A stretch of 9,672 nt of DNA from a virus (taxonomy: Duplodnaviria; Heunggongvirae; Uroviricota; Caudoviricetes), in the IMG/VR virus record IMGVR_UViG_2802429253_000010, one strand, 5' to 3'. Below, in pieces: positions 276 to 8,254 of this stretch. Within the stretch, counting starts at the first letter, position 1, and each line of letters opens with the position of its first letter. A program made the position numbers and the translations under genes. The notes under the pieces are model-generated. The model saw only the letters and a program-made list of their open reading frames with translations. It had not been told where the DNA came from and made no database searches.

Positions 276-698
276 TCACTTCAAAAAATACCGAACATCC
301 CCCTGATAAAACGACAATATCCGCTGCATAACTTCGCTTTTACGACACTCAGTACAAATTATATTATGACGCCTGTCGTAACGACGTATTTCTCCATCAG
401 GTAATGACCAGATAAGGTCCGGATCAACCGCAGATGGTTTCTTCAGCTTTGCCCTTGAGAGCTTTTTACGGGCATTTTGCCAGTCCTTACGCGCCTGTTC
501 AGACGGGAATAACCCGTAACCAGAGTTGTATACATCGCCACTGGCAACCAGCTCTCTGGCCAGAACGCTCATCAGATATCTTGTTGCCCCAGTTTTAGCT
601 TCCAGTTGTCGTAACGTCTCGCGCCCACTCTGGCGTACGAGTTCAAGAACCTGCCCTTTAATTTTTTCCCGCTCTTCTTGTGTAAAAACTTTTGCCAC
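276..698 (-). CDS. Hypothetical protein, 140 aa, basic; last gene of the minus-strand replication operon in this window
   Basis: Six-frame ORF 276..698. Start codon is GTG (complement of 696-698), preceded by a strong SD (AGGAGG on minus strand, 4-nt spacer). Sits 40 bp downstream of the replication-initiator stop. Function not recognised. Confidence 0.55.
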   Translation of the reverse strand: MAKVFTQEEREKIKGQVLELVRQSGRETLRQLEAKTGATRYLMSVLARELVASGDVYNSGYGLFPSEQARKDWQNARKKLSRAKLKKPSAVDPDLIWSLPDGEIRRYDRRHNIICTECRKSEVMQRILSFYQGDVRYFLK

Positions 699-738: not shown

Positions 739-1833
739 TTACCCCCTGAAGCCCAGTGGAATTTCGGTATCCGGTTCAGAAATATGATTCACACAACGCT
801 GGTTGTTCGTACCGCTTACCGGGAGCAACCAGGGGTTTTCAAAATTCCGGTCCGGTCCAAAAAACGTCGTCGCTCGCTGAACAAATTCCGTTCCCGTTTT
901 CCCGGTAGCCGCCAGGTATCTTGCGTAACGCCTCACACCATCCAGCATGGCCTCTGGTGGCACCCCCTCGCGTAATCTGGCCTTCCAGGCACTGAAAGCG
1001 GATTTCTTCGGGTTTGCCCCAGCACGCAACGGGTATTCCCGCCAGACCTGTTCGAACACATCCGGATAATCTACTCGTCCCACAGGCTGCCCGGTGTTTT
1101 CCGGGACTACCCGATCGGCTTCCCGCTGAATGGCGGAATCGGCTTCAGGCTGCTGCAGTTGGTGTGATTGCTCCGGCCTTGCGGTCATCACCTGCTGCAC
1201 AGCGCCCGAATCGGCTTTCAGCGCATACGCTGAATCGGCTTCCGGTGTCGTGCCTGCTGGCTGACCAAGATTGACGGTCTGAACATCCCCTGCCTGGTTC
1301 GTGGCGTTTTTTACGCCATGGACCATAGTGTTTTGATCTTCTTGATCTGTATCTTTATCTGTATCTTTATCTGTATCTTTATCTGTATCTTTATCTGTCG
1401 TGACTCGTCGTGACATGTGCGTGACATTTCGTGACGCGCCGTGACAATCGCCATTTTGTTCCCGCTTTCTTTCCCTCTCTCGCTGCGCCCTCTTGCGCTC
1501 TGCAGGAGATTTTGCGGTTTGCGAAATATTGCCGTTGTCCTCTTTAAGCACCTGGCGTTTTTCCCATCCAGTGATTAAATCACCATCAAGTACCCGCCCC
1601 TGCATCGTCTGCAAAATTGAATCAATTACCTCTTCTGTCACGTCGAGCGCACTTGCCAAATCTTCTGTCGTGACATCAATGTGACCTCGCGTGACATTTC
1701 GTGACGCGCTCACCAGGAGGTGGATATACACTGCCATCACTGTTGCAATTGGCTGCCCTGACACCCTGGCAATTGTTCGCCACTTAGGGTCATTTGGCAT
1801 GTCATGCCATAATCTGAGCCAAGCGTTAGCCAT
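739..1833 (-). CDS. Putative phage replication initiator (O-like/replisome organiser) with internal origin-like iterons; 364 aa from ATG at 1833
   Basis: ORF 739..1839 in track begins with GTG; an in-frame ATG two codons in (complement of 1831-1833) has an SD (GAGGTG, about 5-nt spacer), so 1833 is the preferred start. Contains iteron-like direct repeats and a (DKDT)n peptide repeat within the coding sequence, as in lambda O/ori. Arg/Glu-rich linker (RERERKRE). Position immediately downstream of cro-like and CII-like genes. Family assignment is inference. Confidence 0.6.
   Translation of the reverse strand: MANAWLRLWHDMPNDPKWRTIARVSGQPIATVMAVYIHLLVSASRNVTRGHIDVTTEDLASALDVTEEVIDSILQTMQGRVLDGDLITGWEKRQVLKEDNGNISQTAKSPAERKRAQRERERKREQNGDCHGASRNVTHMSRRVTTDKDTDKDTDKDTDKDTDQEDQNTMVHGVKNATNQAGDVQTVNLGQPAGTTPEADSAYALKADSGAVQQVMTARPEQSHQLQQPEADSAIQREADRVVPENTGQPVGRVDYPDVFEQVWREYPLRAGANPKKSAFSAWKARLREGVPPEAMLDGVRRYARYLAATGKTGTEFVQRATTFFGPDRNFENPWLLPVSGTNNQRCVNHISEPDTEIPLGFRG
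1345..1398. repeat. Perfect tandem repeat, 4.5 copies of 12-bp unit ATCTGTATCTTT (nine alternating hexamers ATCTGT/ATCTTT); encodes TDKDTDKD... in the replication protein
   Basis: Read directly from sequence 1345-1398; an additional ATCTT at 1336-1340. Confidence 0.9.
1399..1445. repeat. Iteron-like cluster I: five CGTGAC direct repeats phased at 10-11 bp (starts 1399, 1409, 1420, 1430, 1440); putative replication origin core
   Basis: Direct observation; helical-turn phasing typical of initiator-binding iterons; located inside the initiator gene next to a polypyrimidine tract (about 1459-1502). Confidence 0.6.
1669..1705. repeat. Iteron-like cluster II: CGTGAC-type direct repeats at 1669, 1680 (TGTGAC), 1690, 1700; includes an exact 20-bp copy (cgtgacatttcgtgacgcgc, 1690-1709) of 1420-1439
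   Basis: Direct observation; also an inverted GTCACG at 1637-1642 and a 9-bp direct repeat tcttctgtc (1631-1639 and 1661-1669). Both clusters encode the repeated peptide SRNVT in the initiator. Confidence 0.55.
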
Positions 1834-1904: not shown

Positions 1905-2330
1905 TCAATGTACTGCCACAGCATTTCCTGCCGGGCCACCACGGTTCATCTGATTGAAACCGGCGATTGCCACTGCGACAAAATCATCAGCGTCTCTCAC
2001 CAATCGCTCCCGCGTCTCCACCAGCTCCCGAAAATAAGCTGAACTGTGGCTGCGCATTCTGGCCACCAGCAAAGGTGGCATTGCCTTTTCGATCGCTGGT
2101 AACAACGCCTGAATTTTTTCAACTGCATCAGGGGTGTCTTTCTCTACCCAGCGGAAAATTTTCTGGGTATTGCGAGCCAAGGCTTCCGGATGGCTGTCGT
2201 CATACAGTTCAGGAAACGTCATACCCAACTCAAAATAAGCCTGGGTTATTCCAGCTGCTGGAACTTTTTCGCCATCAGGACGCGCCCAGGCATTCATCGC
2301 CATGCGGATGTGTTCATGCTTGATTTTCAT
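1905..2330 (-). CDS. Phage CII-like regulatory protein (YdaT-family-like), 141 aa
   Basis: ORF track gives 1905..2402; the internal ATG (complement of 2328-2330, MKIKHEH...) has a strong SD (AAGGGGGG, 4-nt spacer) and avoids a long overlap with the upstream cro-like gene, so it is preferred. Size, N-terminus and position after the cro-like gene match my recollection of Rac YdaT; not verified. Confidence 0.6.
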   Translation of the reverse strand: MKIKHEHIRMAMNAWARPDGEKVPAAGITQAYFELGMTFPELYDDSHPEALARNTQKIFRWVEKDTPDAVEKIQALLPAIEKAMPPLLVARMRSHSSAYFRELVETRERLVRDADDFVAVAIAGFNQMNRGGPAGNAVAVH

Positions 2331-2556
2331 GAATCCCCCCTTGGTTAGAAGGCGGATTATGATCAGAACCGGGAATGACAACCGTCGGTATGTGTAACTC
2401 ATATTTGAGCGCCCCGGCAGTGACTGCCTGAATTAGCAACGCCCATTTCCACGGAACCTCTTCCCCCCACATGCTGACTGTGGTTTTTGACGTTCCTAGA
2501 GCTGCGGCTGTTTTAACAACTCCGCCAAAATAGCCTAATACTTCTGATTTTTTCAT
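2314..2556 (-). CDS. Cro-like HTH regulator (DicC/YdaS-family-like), 80 aa
   Basis: ORF track 2314..2604 starts at TTG; the in-frame ATG (complement of 2554-2556, MKKSEV...) has an SD (TGGAG, 6-nt spacer). HTH-like segment VKTAAALGTSKTTVSMWG. Divergent from the repressor gene across a 91-bp operator region. Confidence 0.6.
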   Translation of the reverse strand: MKKSEVLGYFGGVVKTAAALGTSKTTVSMWGEEVPWKWALLIQAVTAGALKYELHIPTVVIPGSDHNPPSNQGGIHENQA

Positions 2557-2584
2557 GAGTCGCTCCATAAAACTGAACGCCAAA

Positions 2585-2648
2585 AGTTTAATAATCAAAA
2601 CCAAAGAAAGTCAAGAAACAAAACCATCTGTGTTTTAAAATCAAAACA
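2585..2648. promoter_or_regulatory. OR-type immunity switch: operator TGTTTT-N6-AAAACA (2631-2648) plus weaker copies (about 2586-2601, 2610-2625); candidate pR for cro-like gene (-35 TTGACT = complement of 2609-2614, -10 TAAACT = complement of 2585-2590); candidate pRM -10 TAAAAT (2636-2641) directly abutting the cI ATG
   Basis: Palindrome and hexamers read directly; the same 18-bp operator architecture recurs at 3353-3370. No SD upstream of the cI ATG at 2648, suggesting a leaderless cI mRNA as in lambda pRM. Promoter assignments are inference. Confidence 0.5.
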
Positions 2649-3286
2649 TGAGCAAGCAAACAATATCTGAACGCATAACCCAACGTATGCATGCGCTAAA
2701 CCTGAAAGGCAAAGACCTTGTCAATGCCACTGGCGCATCAAAAGGCTCCGTAAGTCAATGGATGAACGGTGGAGGAGCGCCGTCCTCGCGTTACATAAGT
2801 TCACTGGCAAAGATATTGAAAGTAAACGAAAATTGGCTTCTTAATGGAGGAGAGTTAAATACAGGTGATTCGCTTGATCTATCTTTACCGCCGATAAAAA
2901 CGGTTCCGCTACTATCACTTCAGCAGGCAGCAAGCTGGAGTGATTATATGAAAAATTCCTCAATAACCTCTTGTGTGCAGCTTGTCGGAGAAATCCCGGC
3001 CAATACCTTTGCAGTTGTTCTAGAGAGTGACAGTATGTCAACATCTGGTGGGGGAGTTTCCATCCCAAATGGTTCAACAGTTTTTGTTGATCCCGATCGA
3101 ACCGTACAACCAGGAAATATTGTCCTTGCCTTACCCAAAGGGACCACAACACCTGTCATTCGTAAACTGGAGATAGAAGGGCCGGATATTCTTTTAGTCC
3201 CCACGAATCCTCGCTACCCTTCAATTATGCTGGATGATCTATCTTGCATATTGGGCGTATGCTTTAAAATTCAACAAGATATTTAA
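2648..3286 (+). CDS. cI-like prophage repressor: N-terminal HTH (XRE-type) plus C-terminal LexA/S24 peptidase-like domain, 212 aa
   Basis: HTH segment (about aa 10-60); S24 hallmarks seen: Ser in ESDSM (aa 126-130) and Lys in VIRKL (aa 173); divergent to the cro-like gene; operators on both flanks. Confidence 0.85.
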   Translation: MSKQTISERITQRMHALNLKGKDLVNATGASKGSVSQWMNGGGAPSSRYISSLAKILKVNENWLLNGGELNTGDSLDLSLPPIKTVPLLSLQQAASWSDYMKNSSITSCVQLVGEIPANTFAVVLESDSMSTSGGGVSIPNGSTVFVDPDRTVQPGNIVLALPKGTTTPVIRKLEIEGPDILLVPTNPRYPSIMLDDLSCILGVCFKIQQDI

Positions 3287-3352
3287 CCAACCTCATCTAT
3301 TTGATTAACTGTATGCCATCGTGATGATGGCTTAACAGCTGCCTGCTTAAAA

Positions 3353-3399
3353 TGTTTTGATAAAAAAACATTGACCTGAAAAGTTCATTTTTCTAAACT
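3353..3399 (+). promoter_or_regulatory. OL-type operator (TGTTTT-N6-AAAACA, 3353-3370) immediately upstream of a strong sigma70-like early-left promoter (-35 TTGACC 3371-3376, 17-bp spacer, -10 TAAACT 3394-3399)
   Basis: Read directly; operator half-sites identical to the OR site at 2631-2648; the -10 hexamer is the same as the candidate pR -10. Equivalent position to lambda pL / Qin dicBp. Confidence 0.6.
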
Positions 3400-3578
3400 T
3401 CATTCATTCCCTCACCCCACCCCACAGAATGCAGGGTAATACTTCGAGTTACTAGGCAGTGGTCAGGGGTTAAGTAGCCAGCCCGAGGCGTAAGAACATG
3501 ACGGCAGGGTTCAACTTTAATAACTATGCAGCAGGTTTTTGTTCCGCTACCCCGGCGTTAAGGGGAAATGAGGTCAAC

Positions 3579-3734
3579 ATGGATACTATCGATCTTGGCA
3601 ACAACGAATCTCTGGTGTACGGCGTGTTTCCCAACCAGGACGGCACATTCACCGCGATGACGTATACCAAAAGCAAAACGTTTAAAACCGAAAATGGTGC
3701 CCGTCGCTGGCTGGAAAGAAACTCAGGTGAGTGA
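3579..3734 (+). CDS. ydfA: Small early protein, 51 aa (ydfA-like by size and position); alternative start at 3498 gives 78 aa
   Basis: ORF 3498..3734 in track; the internal ATG at 3579 has the better SD (AGG/GGGGAA upstream, 5-nt spacer) and gives the 51-aa size I recall for Qin YdfA. Symbol rests on size and synteny recollection only. Confidence 0.45.
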   Translation: MDTIDLGNNESLVYGVFPNQDGTFTAMTYTKSKTFKTENGARRWLERNSGE

Positions 3735-4134: not shown

Positions 4135-4542
4135 ATGGAATTTAAAGATTTACCAAAAGAAATCCAGACAATTGCTGCAACGACTCTCGGTGATAGTCTG
4201 GTGAAAATTGACCCGGCATACACCAAAAAAGAAACCATCGATAATATGGTTCGTAATGTGCGCAATGCTTTTTCTGGGCTATATGGTTCTGATAATCAAA
4301 AGCAGGAAAGCGACGTTAATGAACGGGTAATTTCTGTTTGCGTGAATGGCCATGTTCTTTCATCAATCAAAACAGAAACAGCAACACTCTTCGATTGCCT
4401 TTGCATTGTACAGAGTCTTGTTGATGCCCTGTTTCGTTCAGTGAATTTAGAAAATGATGCAAATCTGCGAGGGCGCACAATAGCACATCCATATGCACAT
4501 ACTTTAGGCTCGGTGGATATCAAAGATCCCACAAATCTTTAA
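4135..4542 (+). CDS. Hypothetical protein, 135 aa, in an AT-rich block; unknown function (candidate accessory/moron gene)
   Basis: ORF 4135..4542; SD-like AAGG (4124-4127); protein-like composition; lies in an AT-rich segment that I do not recall in the canonical dicB operon. Confidence 0.5.
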   Translation: MEFKDLPKEIQTIAATTLGDSLVKIDPAYTKKETIDNMVRNVRNAFSGLYGSDNQKQESDVNERVISVCVNGHVLSSIKTETATLFDCLCIVQSLVDALFRSVNLENDANLRGRTIAHPYAHTLGSVDIKDPTNL

Positions 4543-4753
4543 TGAAATAGTTAACGCGAATTGTACTTGCTCTTTCAGTTGCTTTCAGAATACGCGTTGA
4601 AACTGCTGGCGGTAATTTGGTATTCCATTTATTAAAATCATGCCCGGGAAAGTACTCTTCGAAAATACTTTTAACTGCAGACTCGCCTATTGAAATGCTG
4701 CTTACCATGCGATTTTGATAAAGGCATTTAGCAATAAGAGTTGATTTTAACAT
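4520..4753 (-). CDS. Hypothetical protein, 77 aa, convergent with and overlapping by 23 bp the 3' end of the 135-aa gene; unknown function
   Basis: ORF 4520..4753 on minus strand; strong SD (AGGAGG, about 4-nt spacer) before the ATG. Caveat: the SD lies in a palindrome (ccctcctgaggg), so it may be coincidental. Confidence 0.4.
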   Translation of the reverse strand: MLKSTLIAKCLYQNRMVSSISIGESAVKSIFEEYFPGHDFNKWNTKLPPAVSTRILKATERASTIRVNYFIKDLWDL

Positions 4754-5086: not shown

Positions 5087-5139
5087 TTTCTGGTGACGTT
5101 TGGCGGTATCAGTTTTACTCCGTGACTGCTCTGCCGCCC
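5087..5139 (+). ncRNA. dicF: DicF small RNA (trans-acting sRNA that inhibits ftsZ translation); exact ends uncertain
   Basis: Sequence tttctggtgacgtttggcggtatcagttttactccgtgactgctctgccgccc followed by TTTTT (5140-5144) matches my recollection of E. coli DicF almost base for base. Context also fits: dicB and ydfD-like genes immediately downstream. Confidence 0.8.
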
Positions 5140-5782: not shown

Positions 5783-8254
5783 ATGAGTAAAGTCTTTATT
5801 TGCGCCGCCATTCCGGACGAACAGGCAATAAAGGAAGAAGGTGCAGTCGCTGTAGCCACTGCCATTGAAGCCGGTGATGAACGTCGCGCACGCGCAAAAT
5901 TTCACTGGCAATTCCTGGAACATTATCCGGCTGCTCAGGACTGCGCTTATAAATTTCTTGTCTGCGAGGATAAACCCGGTATACCCCGCCCTGCCCTCGA
6001 TTCCTGGGATGCTGAATATATGCAGGAAAACCGCTGGGATGAGGCGTCTGCTTCCTTTGTCCCGGTCGAGACTGAATCCGATCCGATGAACGTCACTTTT
6101 GACAACCTAGCCCCTGAAGTACAGAACGCTGTCATGGTTAAGTTCGACACATGTGAAAACATCACTGTTGATATGGTGATTAGCGCACAGGAATTGTTGC
6201 AGGAAGACATGGCAACATTCGACGGCCATATCGTTGAAGCGTTGATGAAAATGCCAGAAGTTAACGCCATGTATCCGGAGCTTAAGCTGCATGCCATCGG
6301 GTGGGTTAAGCATAAATGTAAGCCTGGTGCCAAATGGCCCGAAATTCAGGCAGAGATGCGCATCTGGAAAAAACGTCGCGAAGGTGAACGCAAGGAAACC
6401 GGAAAATACACGTCTGTTGTTGATCTCGCCCGCGCCAGAGCCAATCAACAGCACACTGAAAATTCAACAGGAAAAATCAACCCGGTCATTGCTGCCACTC
6501 ATCGCGAATACAAGCAGACATGGAAAACACTGGATGACGAACTGGCCTACGCTCTCTGGCCTGGTGATGTGGATGCCGGAAACATTGACGGCAGCATCCA
6601 TCGCTGGGCAAAAAATGAAGTTATCGACAACGACCGCGAAGACTGGAAGCGTATCTCGGCATCAATGCGCAAACAGCCCGATGCCCTTCGCTACGACCGC
6701 CAGACTATTTTTGGCCTTGTCCGTGAACGTCCGATCGACATTCACAAAGACCCTGTGGCACTGAACAAATACATTACTGAATACCTGACTACAAAGGGCG
6801 TGTTTGAAGATGAAGGAAGAAATCAGAGCGCAACTGATACTCTCTCGTCGCCAGTACCAGAAACTGATGCAGTGGAAACGGCAATTCCGGACAACGAAAA
6901 AACCGAATGCAAAGTGGAAGTCGAACCATCTGTAGAGCGTGAGGGGCCGTTCTACTTCCTCTTCACCGACAAGGGTGGCGAAAAATACGGTCGCGCAAAC
7001 AAACTTTCTGGTCTGGATAAGGCACTGGCTGCCGGGGCTACTGAAATCACGAAAGAAGAATATTTCGCCCGCAAAAACGGTACATACTCAGGTTCACAAC
7101 AAAATACTGGTGCATCTGACACGACCGCACAACCAGGGCCGGTAAAAGTTACCGCTGACAAAGTAAACAAAATTATGCAGGCAGCCAATATCAGCCAGCC
7201 TGACGCCGATGAACTGCTTGCAGTATCACGTGGTGAATTTGTTGCAGGGATTAGCGATCCGAATGATCCGAAATGGGTGAAGGGGATTGAAACCCGCGAT
7301 TCTGTGAACCAGAACCAGCAAGAAACGGAACAGAACGACCAGAAAGCGGAACAAAACAGCCCAAATACGCAACAAAACGAGCCAGAAACGAAACAACCTG
7401 AACCAGTAGTGCAACAGGAACCGGAAAAGATCTGCACCGCCTGCGGTCAGAGCGGTGGCGGCAACTGCCCTGATTGTGGTGCGGTGATGGGCGACGCAAC
7501 ATACCAGGAAACATTCGATGACAAGAACCAGGTTGAAGTTCAGGAAGACGATTCGGAGAAAATGGAAGGCGCTGAACATCCACACAAGGAGAATGCTGGC
7601 AGCGCTCAGGACCACGCCAGCGATAGTGAAACTGGCGAGACGGCAGATCCCTTAATTACGATGAACGGTCATCACTTTATCACATCCACCAGCAGGACGT
7701 GTGACCATCTAATGATCGACCTTGAAACCATGGGAAAAAATCCTGAGGCCCCGATTATCTCAATAGGTGCAATATTTTTCGATCCGCAAACCGGAGATAT
7801 GGGACCGGAATTTAGTAAGACTATCGATCTGGAAACTGCTGGCGGAGTCATTGATCGGGACACCATTAAATGGTGGCTTAAGCAATCACGCGAAGCGCAA
7901 TCTGCCATTATGACCGATGAAATCCCGTTAGATGATGCACTGTTACAATTGCGGGAATTTATCGACGAAAACTCCGGTGAGTTTTTTGTTCAGGTCTGGG
8001 GAAATGGAGCCAACTTCGACAACACGATTTTGCGCCGTTCATACGAACGGCAGGGGATCCCCTGCCCGTGGCGCTACTGCAACGATCGCGATGTACGCAC
8101 AATCGTTGAACTGGGGAAAGCCATAGACTTCGATGCCAGAACGGCTATTCCATTCGAAGGTGAGCGCCATAATGCACTTGATGACGCCCGTTACCAGGCA
8201 AAATACGTTTCAGCTATCTGGCAAAAACTGATCCCGAGCCAGGCTGATTTTTAA
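5783..8254 (+). CDS. Large prophage exonuclease-like protein (823 aa): N-terminal region of unknown function, Q/E/N-rich acidic linker, C4 zinc-ribbon motif, C-terminal DnaQ-like DEDDh 3'-5' exonuclease domain
   Basis: ORF with SD GAGGT (5770-5774). Motifs read from translation: CTACGQSGGGNCPDCG (CxxC-x8-CxxC, nt about 7434-7481); Exo I DLETMG (nt about 7700), Exo II-like GNGANFDNT, Exo III HNALDDARYQ (H-x4-D). Occupies the slot of lambda exo / Rac recE just upstream of xis-int. Related proteins are often annotated exodeoxyribonuclease VIII (recollection). Confidence 0.85.
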   Translation: MSKVFICAAIPDEQAIKEEGAVAVATAIEAGDERRARAKFHWQFLEHYPAAQDCAYKFLVCEDKPGIPRPALDSWDAEYMQENRWDEASASFVPVETESDPMNVTFDNLAPEVQNAVMVKFDTCENITVDMVISAQELLQEDMATFDGHIVEALMKMPEVNAMYPELKLHAIGWVKHKCKPGAKWPEIQAEMRIWKKRREGERKETGKYTSVVDLARARANQQHTENSTGKINPVIAATHREYKQTWKTLDDELAYALWPGDVDAGNIDGSIHRWAKNEVIDNDREDWKRISASMRKQPDALRYDRQTIFGLVRERPIDIHKDPVALNKYITEYLTTKGVFEDEGRNQSATDTLSSPVPETDAVETAIPDNEKTECKVEVEPSVEREGPFYFLFTDKGGEKYGRANKLSGLDKALAAGATEITKEEYFARKNGTYSGSQQNTGASDTTAQPGPVKVTADKVNKIMQAANISQPDADELLAVSRGEFVAGISDPNDPKWVKGIETRDSVNQNQQETEQNDQKAEQNSPNTQQNEPETKQPEPVVQQEPEKICTACGQSGGGNCPDCGAVMGDATYQETFDDKNQVEVQEDDSEKMEGAEHPHKENAGSAQDHASDSETGETADPLITMNGHHFITSTSRTCDHLMIDLETMGKNPEAPIISIGAIFFDPQTGDMGPEFSKTIDLETAGGVIDRDTIKWWLKQSREAQSAIMTDEIPLDDALLQLREFIDENSGEFFVQVWGNGANFDNTILRRSYERQGIPCPWRYCNDRDVRTIVELGKAIDFDARTAIPFEGERHNALDDARYQAKYVSAIWQKLIPSQADF

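Follow-up and report, generated by a model that had tools for sequence, protein, structure and literature searches.

The window analysed here (IMG/VR record IMGVR_UViG_2802429253_000010, 9,672 nucleotides (nt)) comes from a lambdoid Escherichia coli prophage of the Rac/Qin type and comprises its immunity and replication region. Its replisome-organizer gene carries two clusters of a phased hexamer (CGTGAC, GTCACG on the coding strand) and an AT-rich tandem array, and from the sequence the region 1340-1709 is likely to be a prophage replication origin placed within the coding sequence of its own initiator. In the best reading, iterons and an unwinding element together make up the origin, by analogy with ori-lambda within O and SPP1 oriL within gene 38. 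An earlier note made from the letters of the window had proposed a probable origin embedded in the initiator gene, and computational support for this comes from the initiator match of the protein, a constraint acting on the DNA, a minimum in guanine-plus-cytosine (GC) content, the recurrence of the layout in homologues and the co-exchange of repeats and protein domain in natural chimeras. Table 1 gives the positions of all features.

Phased hexamers in the organizer gene

The five hexamers of the linker cluster are spaced by 10, 11, 10 and 10 base pairs (bp), as described in the earlier note, and the 10-11-bp spacing places all sites on one face of the helix. The four further copies that the note had listed, at 1669-1705, comprise three exact hexamers and one variant, TGTGAC. 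On the coding strand the core GTCACG falls at gene nt 129, 139, (149) and 160 in the N-domain cluster and at 389, 399, 409, 420 and 430 in the linker cluster. An exact repeat common to both clusters is real and is 21 nt long, one base longer than first given. The clusters had also been described as flanking both the tandem array and a pyrimidine tract; the pyrimidine tract does lie between them, but the array is to the left of both and abuts the linker cluster. The window contains 10 copies of CGTGAC compared with 3.67 expected, nine of them within 310 bp, and 500 dinucleotide-preserving shuffles of the window gave 10/11-bp chains of at most three hexamers and never five. A scan of the window shows no further iteron-like array, and in the complete 46-kb genome of the temperate phage Tritos, which carries the same organizer gene, a density of at least three GTCAC/GTGAC per 60 nt occurs only at these two clusters. 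The only other 10-bp-phased hexamer chain in Tritos (L151) is CAATGC in three copies at 23188-23213, located in a gap (22680-23813) with a pinR-like invertase gene (22907-23497), and may be a recombinase site.

Scanning a single genome of each species yielded 60 loci with the N-terminal domain of the organizer from Gamma-, Beta- and Alphaproteobacteria, to which three metagenomic relatives were added separately. Clusters were called where the 5- or 6-mer occurring most often along the complete gene formed two 10/11-bp chains, and this two-cluster plan is present in about 50 of 58 loci with full-length genes, all from different species, with chains near gene nt 117-195 and nt 330-480. The first cluster is placed in a loop of the N-terminal domain, the second about 200-280 bp downstream, and an AT-rich tract of the AGATAAAGATAAAGA type follows. 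The core differs by lineage, with GTCAC in 26 loci, GAACG in 16 and GTAAC in 8 (full forms GTCACG, CGAACG and GTAACG). The site of the single inverted hexamer in the window holds the lineage's own core, inverted or direct, in several relatives. Concerted evolution of the two arrays is indicated by 19 of the 60 loci, where identical stretches of 15-39 nt, spacers included, occur in both clusters of a genome. The gaps between clusters (about 195-247 bp) have no common helical phase across the homologues. The Stenotrophomonas and Dyella homologues (L061 and L063) have their first GTCACG cluster at gene nt 75-105, in a 6-amino acid (aa) insertion between helices 2 and 3, and elsewhere it lies in the loop before the helix-turn-helix; this change of loop marks the first cluster as a portable DNA element. 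From one homologue to another, the loop encoded by the N-domain cluster can differ in length by as much as about 22 aa.

A period of 10/11 nt is not a multiple of three, and the hexamer is consequently read in all three frames, as Val-Thr, Ser-Arg and Cys/Gly-His-Gly, the five copies of the linker cluster being translated as CHG, SR, VT, SR and VT. Synonymous codons were shuffled within each gene (200 shuffles per gene) with the protein and the codon usage kept, and in 42 of the 58 diverse homologues, the window included, none of the 200 shuffles reaches the observed number of phased repeats. Destruction of the pattern by shuffles that preserve the protein places the constraint on the DNA and not on the peptide. 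The alternative that the repeats merely follow from repeated peptides and have no DNA function starts from a correct observation, as SRNVT and DKDT, the peptides named in the earlier note, occur twice and four times in the translation. The three-frame reading and the synonymous shuffles nevertheless rule out a protein-repeat origin of the hexamer pattern, and the peptides differ by lineage (SRNVTRGH..., SNATERGRTQ and GNAGVTQSNA) whereas the DNA design is maintained. A pure peptide-repeat artefact is thus excluded for the hexamer arrays, and the by-product explanation as a whole has a negligible probability.

The AT-rich array and natural chimeras

The AT-rich array immediately adjoins the 3' side of the last iteron, as read along the transcript, encodes (DKDT)n and, with a GC content of 27.5%, forms the minimum of the organizer gene. 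The perfect 54-bp tandem array noticed earlier is found as a period-12 run at 1345-1398. In nearly all homologues a purine-strand AT-rich tract of the (C/A)AGATAAAGATAAAGA type lies directly past the last iteron, and its GC content is 0.25-0.48 even in genes of GC 0.6-0.69. Compared across these sequences, the 12-nt array of the window is a local expansion of an AT-rich element with deep conservation, and this element is probably a DNA-unwinding element and more than a slippery linker. Among 81 close alleles from viral contigs the commonest tract length is 24 nt (56 alleles), followed by 36 nt (15), 48 nt (4; the length found in the window), 30 nt (3) and 66 nt (1), and its length in complete genomes likewise steps by 6 or 12 nt. 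The allele of strain 12E115 (H75) is identical to the window in this stretch. The copy-number variation that the earlier note had named as a possible sign of a slippage-prone linker is therefore present. A DnaA-trio was considered for the GAT-containing array and rejected on inspection, as the polarity of the GAT repeats (5'-to-3' on the coding strand) is opposite to that of the motif.

Natural chimeras illustrate how the parts of the gene are exchanged. Locus L068 (strain 2015C-3905) has the N-module of the window, with GTCAC arrays of six and five units, joined to a true homologue of the DnaT C-terminal domain (E 1e-22) and followed by a lambda-P-like gene. Loci L069 (O157:H7; 2505-3596, minus strand) and L067 (another strain; 2540-3625, minus strand) instead have the C-module of the window at 92% nucleotide identity together with an unrelated N-terminal domain (MRDYAKVSPRFW...). 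These two loci carry the repeat AAGGGGCTT, phased at 11 bp, in one cluster at nt 185/196/207 and another, 256 bp away, at 441/452/463, with a GAACAGGAACAGGAG purine tract following. The same two-cluster layout with an unrelated N-terminal domain means that the design is not tied to one DNA-binding domain. By these sequence comparisons, the DNA-binding domain and the repeats travel together, and the N- and C-modules are exchanged separately; co-inheritance of repeats and N-terminal domain is expected of an initiator and its cognate origin. The suggestion of the earlier note that the iterons represent a distinct initiator/origin specificity class is upheld and widened, the family itself having three or more cores and the unrelated N-terminal domain being accompanied by a fourth repeat.

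The homology breakpoints of the chimeras lie at window positions 1334/1335 and 1376, at the edges of the array, and this raises the alternative that the array and the conserved AGATAAAGAT motif are mainly a recombination linker for exchange of the N- and C-modules, with the length variation being neutral slippage in a disordered linker. The AAAGATACAGATAAAGAT tract in Rac ydaU, where the N-terminal domain is unrelated, the polymorphic copy number and the predicted disorder of the segment agree with this alternative. It gives no account of a tract that is always directly past the last iteron, nor of AT-rich tracts in genes of 60-69% GC in distant classes with no evident exchange partners, and as the main function of the array it is very improbable; a linker role is also compatible with a role in unwinding and is not an alternative to it.

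Recognition of the repeats by a protein other than the organizer, such as a host factor, YdaT or the DUF977 protein, would fit the near identity of the N-domain core across different hexamer cores, and binding by the organizer is itself deduced. Against this, the repeats switch to an unrelated motif exactly where the N-terminal domain is replaced, while the YdaT and DUF977 neighbours are retained, and relatives of the same architecture exist without DUF977. Matches to the DnaA box TTWTNCACA within 1100-2000 all have one mismatch and none is inside the clusters. Recognition by another protein is very improbable.

Two further elements near the array were considered. The pyrimidine-rich tract, found at about 1459-1502 as the earlier note had given it, encodes a conserved Arg/Lys/Glu helix (predicted helix 110-126), with R113, R118 and R120 invariant in the homologue alignment. 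No DNA-level explanation is needed for a tract of this kind, and protein-coding constraint is a sufficient and the simplest explanation. Beyond the array the inverted repeat at 1295-1325 is imperfect or degenerate in the window and in other E. coli alleles; its membership in the origin element is uncertain, and it is left out of the established parts of the window element for this degeneracy. In many lineages GC-rich short inverted repeats come after the AT-rich tract, 30-90 nt past the last iteron (L009, L025, L054, L022, L039, L035 and L016). Some of these hairpins are convincing and stronger than that of the window; in the first three loci the loop is identical (TCACTACGTTC) and the stems differ but stay complementary. 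A second repeat system is present in the disordered linker at 1137-1240 (aa ~198-232), with EADS...ADS...EADS peptides and GAATCGGCTT at 1208 and 1232, and many alleles have in-frame deletions of this stretch (proteins of 320-330 aa).

The organizer protein and a model for initiation

The organizer protein matches phrog_3729 "replication initiation protein" from end to end (E 1e-253), and the NCBI cluster containing the 364-aa protein is named "phage replisome organizer". A Pfam and NCBIfam profile search with the full protein returned no family at threshold (Pfam E <= 0.01). The AlphaFold2 model (mean predicted local distance difference test score (pLDDT) 61) is good for the two domains only. 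Its N-terminal domain has helices 2-14, 16-25, 29-45, 56-63 and 67-77 and strands at about 78-88, with a core pLDDT of 86-91, and is presumed to be the origin-binding domain. The N-domain cluster encodes aa 43-55 (SRNVTRGHIDVT), within which loop 48-52 is of low confidence, and the predicted disordered linker (aa 129-252) holds the linker cluster and the array ahead of a helical C-terminal domain. Both clusters are thereby found in segments where the peptide sequence should matter least.

Profile matches of the N-terminal domain are weak. Four of 22 N-terminal domains match PF09681 (Phage_rep_org_N), all below threshold with a best E of 0.0043, and the window protein aligns residues 5-77 with profile positions 1-77 of 121 at E 0.1 and 13 bits, compared with a cut-off of 23.3. 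Sub-threshold matches also occur to Crp-type helix-turn-helix domains. Phage_rep_O is absent even among the weak Pfam matches of the 22 N-terminal domains, and neither these nor the full protein have a Pfam match to Rep_3 or related families. At the other end of the protein, the 25-residue tail is 56% identical to that of K-12 DnaT (E 2e-6, BLASTP) and matches Rac YdaU with E 1e-4; a PDB sequence search with the organizer finds only the DnaT tail, as weak profile matches to DnaT chains. The ending ...(V)N.(I/V)S.PD..IPPGFRG is common to three proteins that are unrelated in other respects, the organizer, Rac YdaU (DUF1376; L006 4120-4977) and host DnaT (L150 2479-3018), and by its sequence is a candidate docking peptide for the host helicase-loading machinery.

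From these features we infer binding by the organizer, unwinding of the array, helicase recruitment and origin activity, in the following scheme. The winged-helix-like N-terminal domain would bind the GTCACG hexamers in the two arrays of the same orientation, with four sites in the N-domain loop and five in the linker. Bound cooperatively along the linker array, and possibly bridging to the upstream array some 230 bp away, the protein would distort the DNA and open the adjoining AT-rich array (1340-1398). The C-terminal domain with its DnaT-like tail may then recruit the host DnaB/DnaC machinery. The prophage itself encodes no loader.

Several points weigh against an origin at 1340-1709. No published binding, unwinding or replication assay was found for the organizer family. 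Among the 81 close alleles the constraint on the hexamers is weak, with 2 of 54 hexamer positions variable compared with 5 of 30 in the spacers (Fisher p = 0.09), a difference in the expected direction but below significance. The natural length of the array ranges over 24-66 nt, whereas in lambda deletions of 12-15 bp in the AT-rich region are origin mutations (PMC6022878). The DNA-binding fold of the N-terminal domain is only suggested, the Pfam matches being sub-threshold and Foldseek against the PDB giving nothing with E <1. Outside the iteron-encoded loop this domain is highly conserved across the three core classes, so that residues switching the specificity are not obvious. The role of the upstream cluster is unexplained.

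This last point bears on the alternative that the hexamer arrays are organizer sites for autoregulation, copy control, handcuffing or a fork barrier, as in SPP1 oriR, with the origin elsewhere in the early region. Two separate clusters, one of them far from the AT-rich tract and with no assigned function, would suit such a role, and for SPP1 G38P binding to a second site that does not initiate has been reported (PMC3485210). However, the linker cluster always abuts the AT-rich tract, the arrays are far downstream of the promoter region and within an open reading frame (ORF), and the Tritos genome holds no other cluster of the hexamer, nor the window any other iteron-like array. A purely regulatory or barrier function is considered unlikely, and an origin at 1340-1709 is retained as the preferred reading.

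Related origins, prophage setting and significance

In ori-lambda, four iterons and a region of high AT content are placed inside O (PMC6022878). The window resembles it in having the origin within the initiator ORF, between an N-terminal DNA-binding and a C-terminal recruitment domain, in the order of several repeats and then an AT-rich region in the direction of transcription (PMC6022878; nine hexamers in the window, with binding predicted), in the operon position after cro and a cII-like gene, and in the separate exchange of an N-module (specificity and origin) and a C-module. Unlike O, the organizer is not a Phage_rep_O protein, and the window has 6-bp direct cores with variable spacers of 4-5 bp and a 10/11-bp period, whereas lambda has four 18-bp inverted repeats with dyad symmetry. 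The window further differs in its two clusters about 230 bp apart, one within the coding sequence of the DNA-binding domain, and in the absence of a lambda-P-type loader gene after the organizer. Protein family and iteron type both disagree, which places the system outside the lambda O family.

SPP1 oriL, with AB boxes and an unwinding element embedded in gene 38 for the replisome organizer G38P (PMC5737612), is similar in combining a non-AAA+ organizer with repeated boxes and an adjacent unwinding element in its own gene, and the N-terminal domain bears a weak, sub-threshold resemblance to PF09681 of the organizers of phages of Gram-positive bacteria. The hosts of the present family are in contrast Proteobacteria, no phage helicase or loader genes adjoin in the window, and the repeat design is another. 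Iteron plasmids of the RepA/pi type have 17-22-bp iterons and a Rep_3-type initiator, unlike the 10-11-bp unit and the window protein. The origins of Staphylococcus aureus pathogenicity islands (SaPIs) have short, hexamer-scale iterons in two sets flanking an AT-rich region, with element-specific pairing of initiator and origin; the SaPI initiator is itself a helicase, and the SaPI origin is beside the rep gene and not inside it.

The Rac module of K-12 (ydaU-ydaV and oriJ) shares the synteny repressor / YdaS / YdaT / organizer / (loader) / DUF977, and YdaU itself contains the same AAAGATACAGATAAAGAT tract, DKDTDKD peptide and C-terminal ...PD..IPPGFRG tail, but its N-terminal domain is an unrelated DUF1376 and its TGTTCAAACA-like repeats are not clearly phased. 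In ydaU the AAAGATACAGATAAAGAT tract is followed by a C-rich palindrome, and gene nt 391-540 (L006 ~4510-4660) show the TGTTCAAACA-like repeats, then AATAAAGATACAGATAAAGAT and then CCCCCCCTAAATCCCCCCCGGGGG. An active origin, oriJ, has been reported for Rac (PMC3945230); a published map position was not found in the literature on oriJ/Rac, and the sequence makes ydaU nt 391-540 a plausible location. The relation to E. coli DnaT, which acts in DnaB/DnaC loading at abandoned replication forks (PMC13377028), is close in the last 25 residues and, in the sister chimera L068, extends to a genuine C-terminal domain, but the window protein shares the tail only and PF17948 (single-stranded DNA-binding domain) was undetected by the Pfam search.

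The gene order cI, cro, YdaT (cII-like) and initiator is typical of lambdoid early-right operons and supports the reading as initiator plus origin. The organizer gene starts with ATG at 1833-1831, a few bases after GAGGTGA. Of 5426 complete E. coli genomes, 1647 contain it at a coverage of 80% or above, and it is also found in temperate phages that have been sequenced, among them Tritos and Evi. Distant relatives (L002 3145-3891, L004 3972-4697 and L005 3964-4731) and the O157:H7 chimera (L069 1752-2498) have an IstB/DnaC-like loader gene next to the organizer, whereas the window and Tritos have none after the organizer and the DUF977 gene is directly next. Tritos has no annotated helicase, loader or primase, which means that the organizer must use host proteins, and the organizer module may be entirely dependent on host DnaC. 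A full-length gene for the DicF antisense small RNA at 5088-5139 (plus strand; Rfam RF00039, 76.7 bits) marks the prophage as Qin/Rac-like, and Tritos has the same DicF element with dicB and ydfD adjoining. A tandem repeat of 21-nt period (4.3 copies, 74% matches) at 7306-7396 is within the long ORF 5783-8254, whose counterpart in Tritos is the exonuclease VIII (RecE)-like gene.

Table 1. Positions of the origin-related elements, protein segments and neighbouring genes in the window
Feature	Position	Strand	Remarks
Linker iteron cluster, five CGTGAC	1399, 1409, 1420, 1430, 1440 (1399..1445)	copies on +	gene nt 389-435
N-domain iteron cluster	1669..1705	copies on +	CGTGAC at 1669, 1690 and 1700; TGTGAC at 1680
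Exact repeat GCGTGACATTTCGTGACGCGC, 21 nt	1419..1439 = 1689-1709		iteron-spacer-iteron, common to both clusters
Single inverted hexamer	1637..1642	GTCACG on +	encodes D-V-T of ALDVTE
AT-rich purine/pyrimidine tandem array, 12 nt x 4.9	1340..1398		coding strand AAAGATACAGAT; Tandem Repeats Finder, 97% matches
Pyrimidine-rich tract, 84% pyrimidine	1459..1502		between the clusters; encodes basic helix AERKRAQRERERKRE
Imperfect inverted repeat	1295..1325		13-nt arms, 11/13 complementary, 5-nt A loop; ~15 nt beyond array
Replisome-organizer (replication initiator) gene, 364 aa	739..1833	-	ORF list and translation
N-terminal domain, aa 1-95	1549..1833	-	predicted helical with beta-hairpin wing; AlphaFold2 model
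C-terminal tail, aa 340-364 (...VNHISEPDTEIPLGFRG)	742..816	-	shared with E. coli DnaT and Rac YdaU
DUF977/"Ren-like" gene	276..698	-	directly downstream of organizer; occupies DnaC/IstB-like loader place of relatives
YdaT/CII-like gene	1905-2402	-	
P22-Cro-like gene	2314-2604	-	
cI-like repressor gene	2648-3286	+	faces P22-Cro-like gene

Searches of the literature on replisome organizers with iterons, Shiga toxin (Stx)-phage Eru types, oriJ/Rac, ydaU/ydaV, the hexamer and DnaT-like organizers found no description of this organizer family or its origin. The bipartite phased-hexamer layout, with one array inside the coding sequence of the DNA-binding domain, is widespread and apparently undescribed, as apparently are the origin and specificity determinants of an organizer frequent in E. 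coli genomes and in functional temperate phages. A bolder and rather doubtful proposal makes the region the first member to be recognised of a pan-proteobacterial class of phage origins, in which phased hexamers read in three frames would occupy two permissive segments of the initiator gene, the arrays would evolve in concert, and core switches (GTCACG/GTAACG/CGAACG/AAGGGGCTT) would define incompatibility classes, with loading possibly of the primosome type via the DnaT-like tail and a post-unwinding hairpin rather than of the lambda-P type. If the origin at 1340-1709 is confirmed, two 10/11-bp-phased arrays and an AGATAA-type tract inside an organizer gene would provide a rule for annotating origins in proteobacterial prophages, and the family would offer a natural panel of initiator-iteron specificity classes in which origin-specificity switching and the avoidance of replication interference between prophages may be followed. 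The gene would also be a compact one-gene candidate replicon reliant on the host helicase loader, and would clearly exemplify how an overlapping DNA signal can shape a coding sequence.

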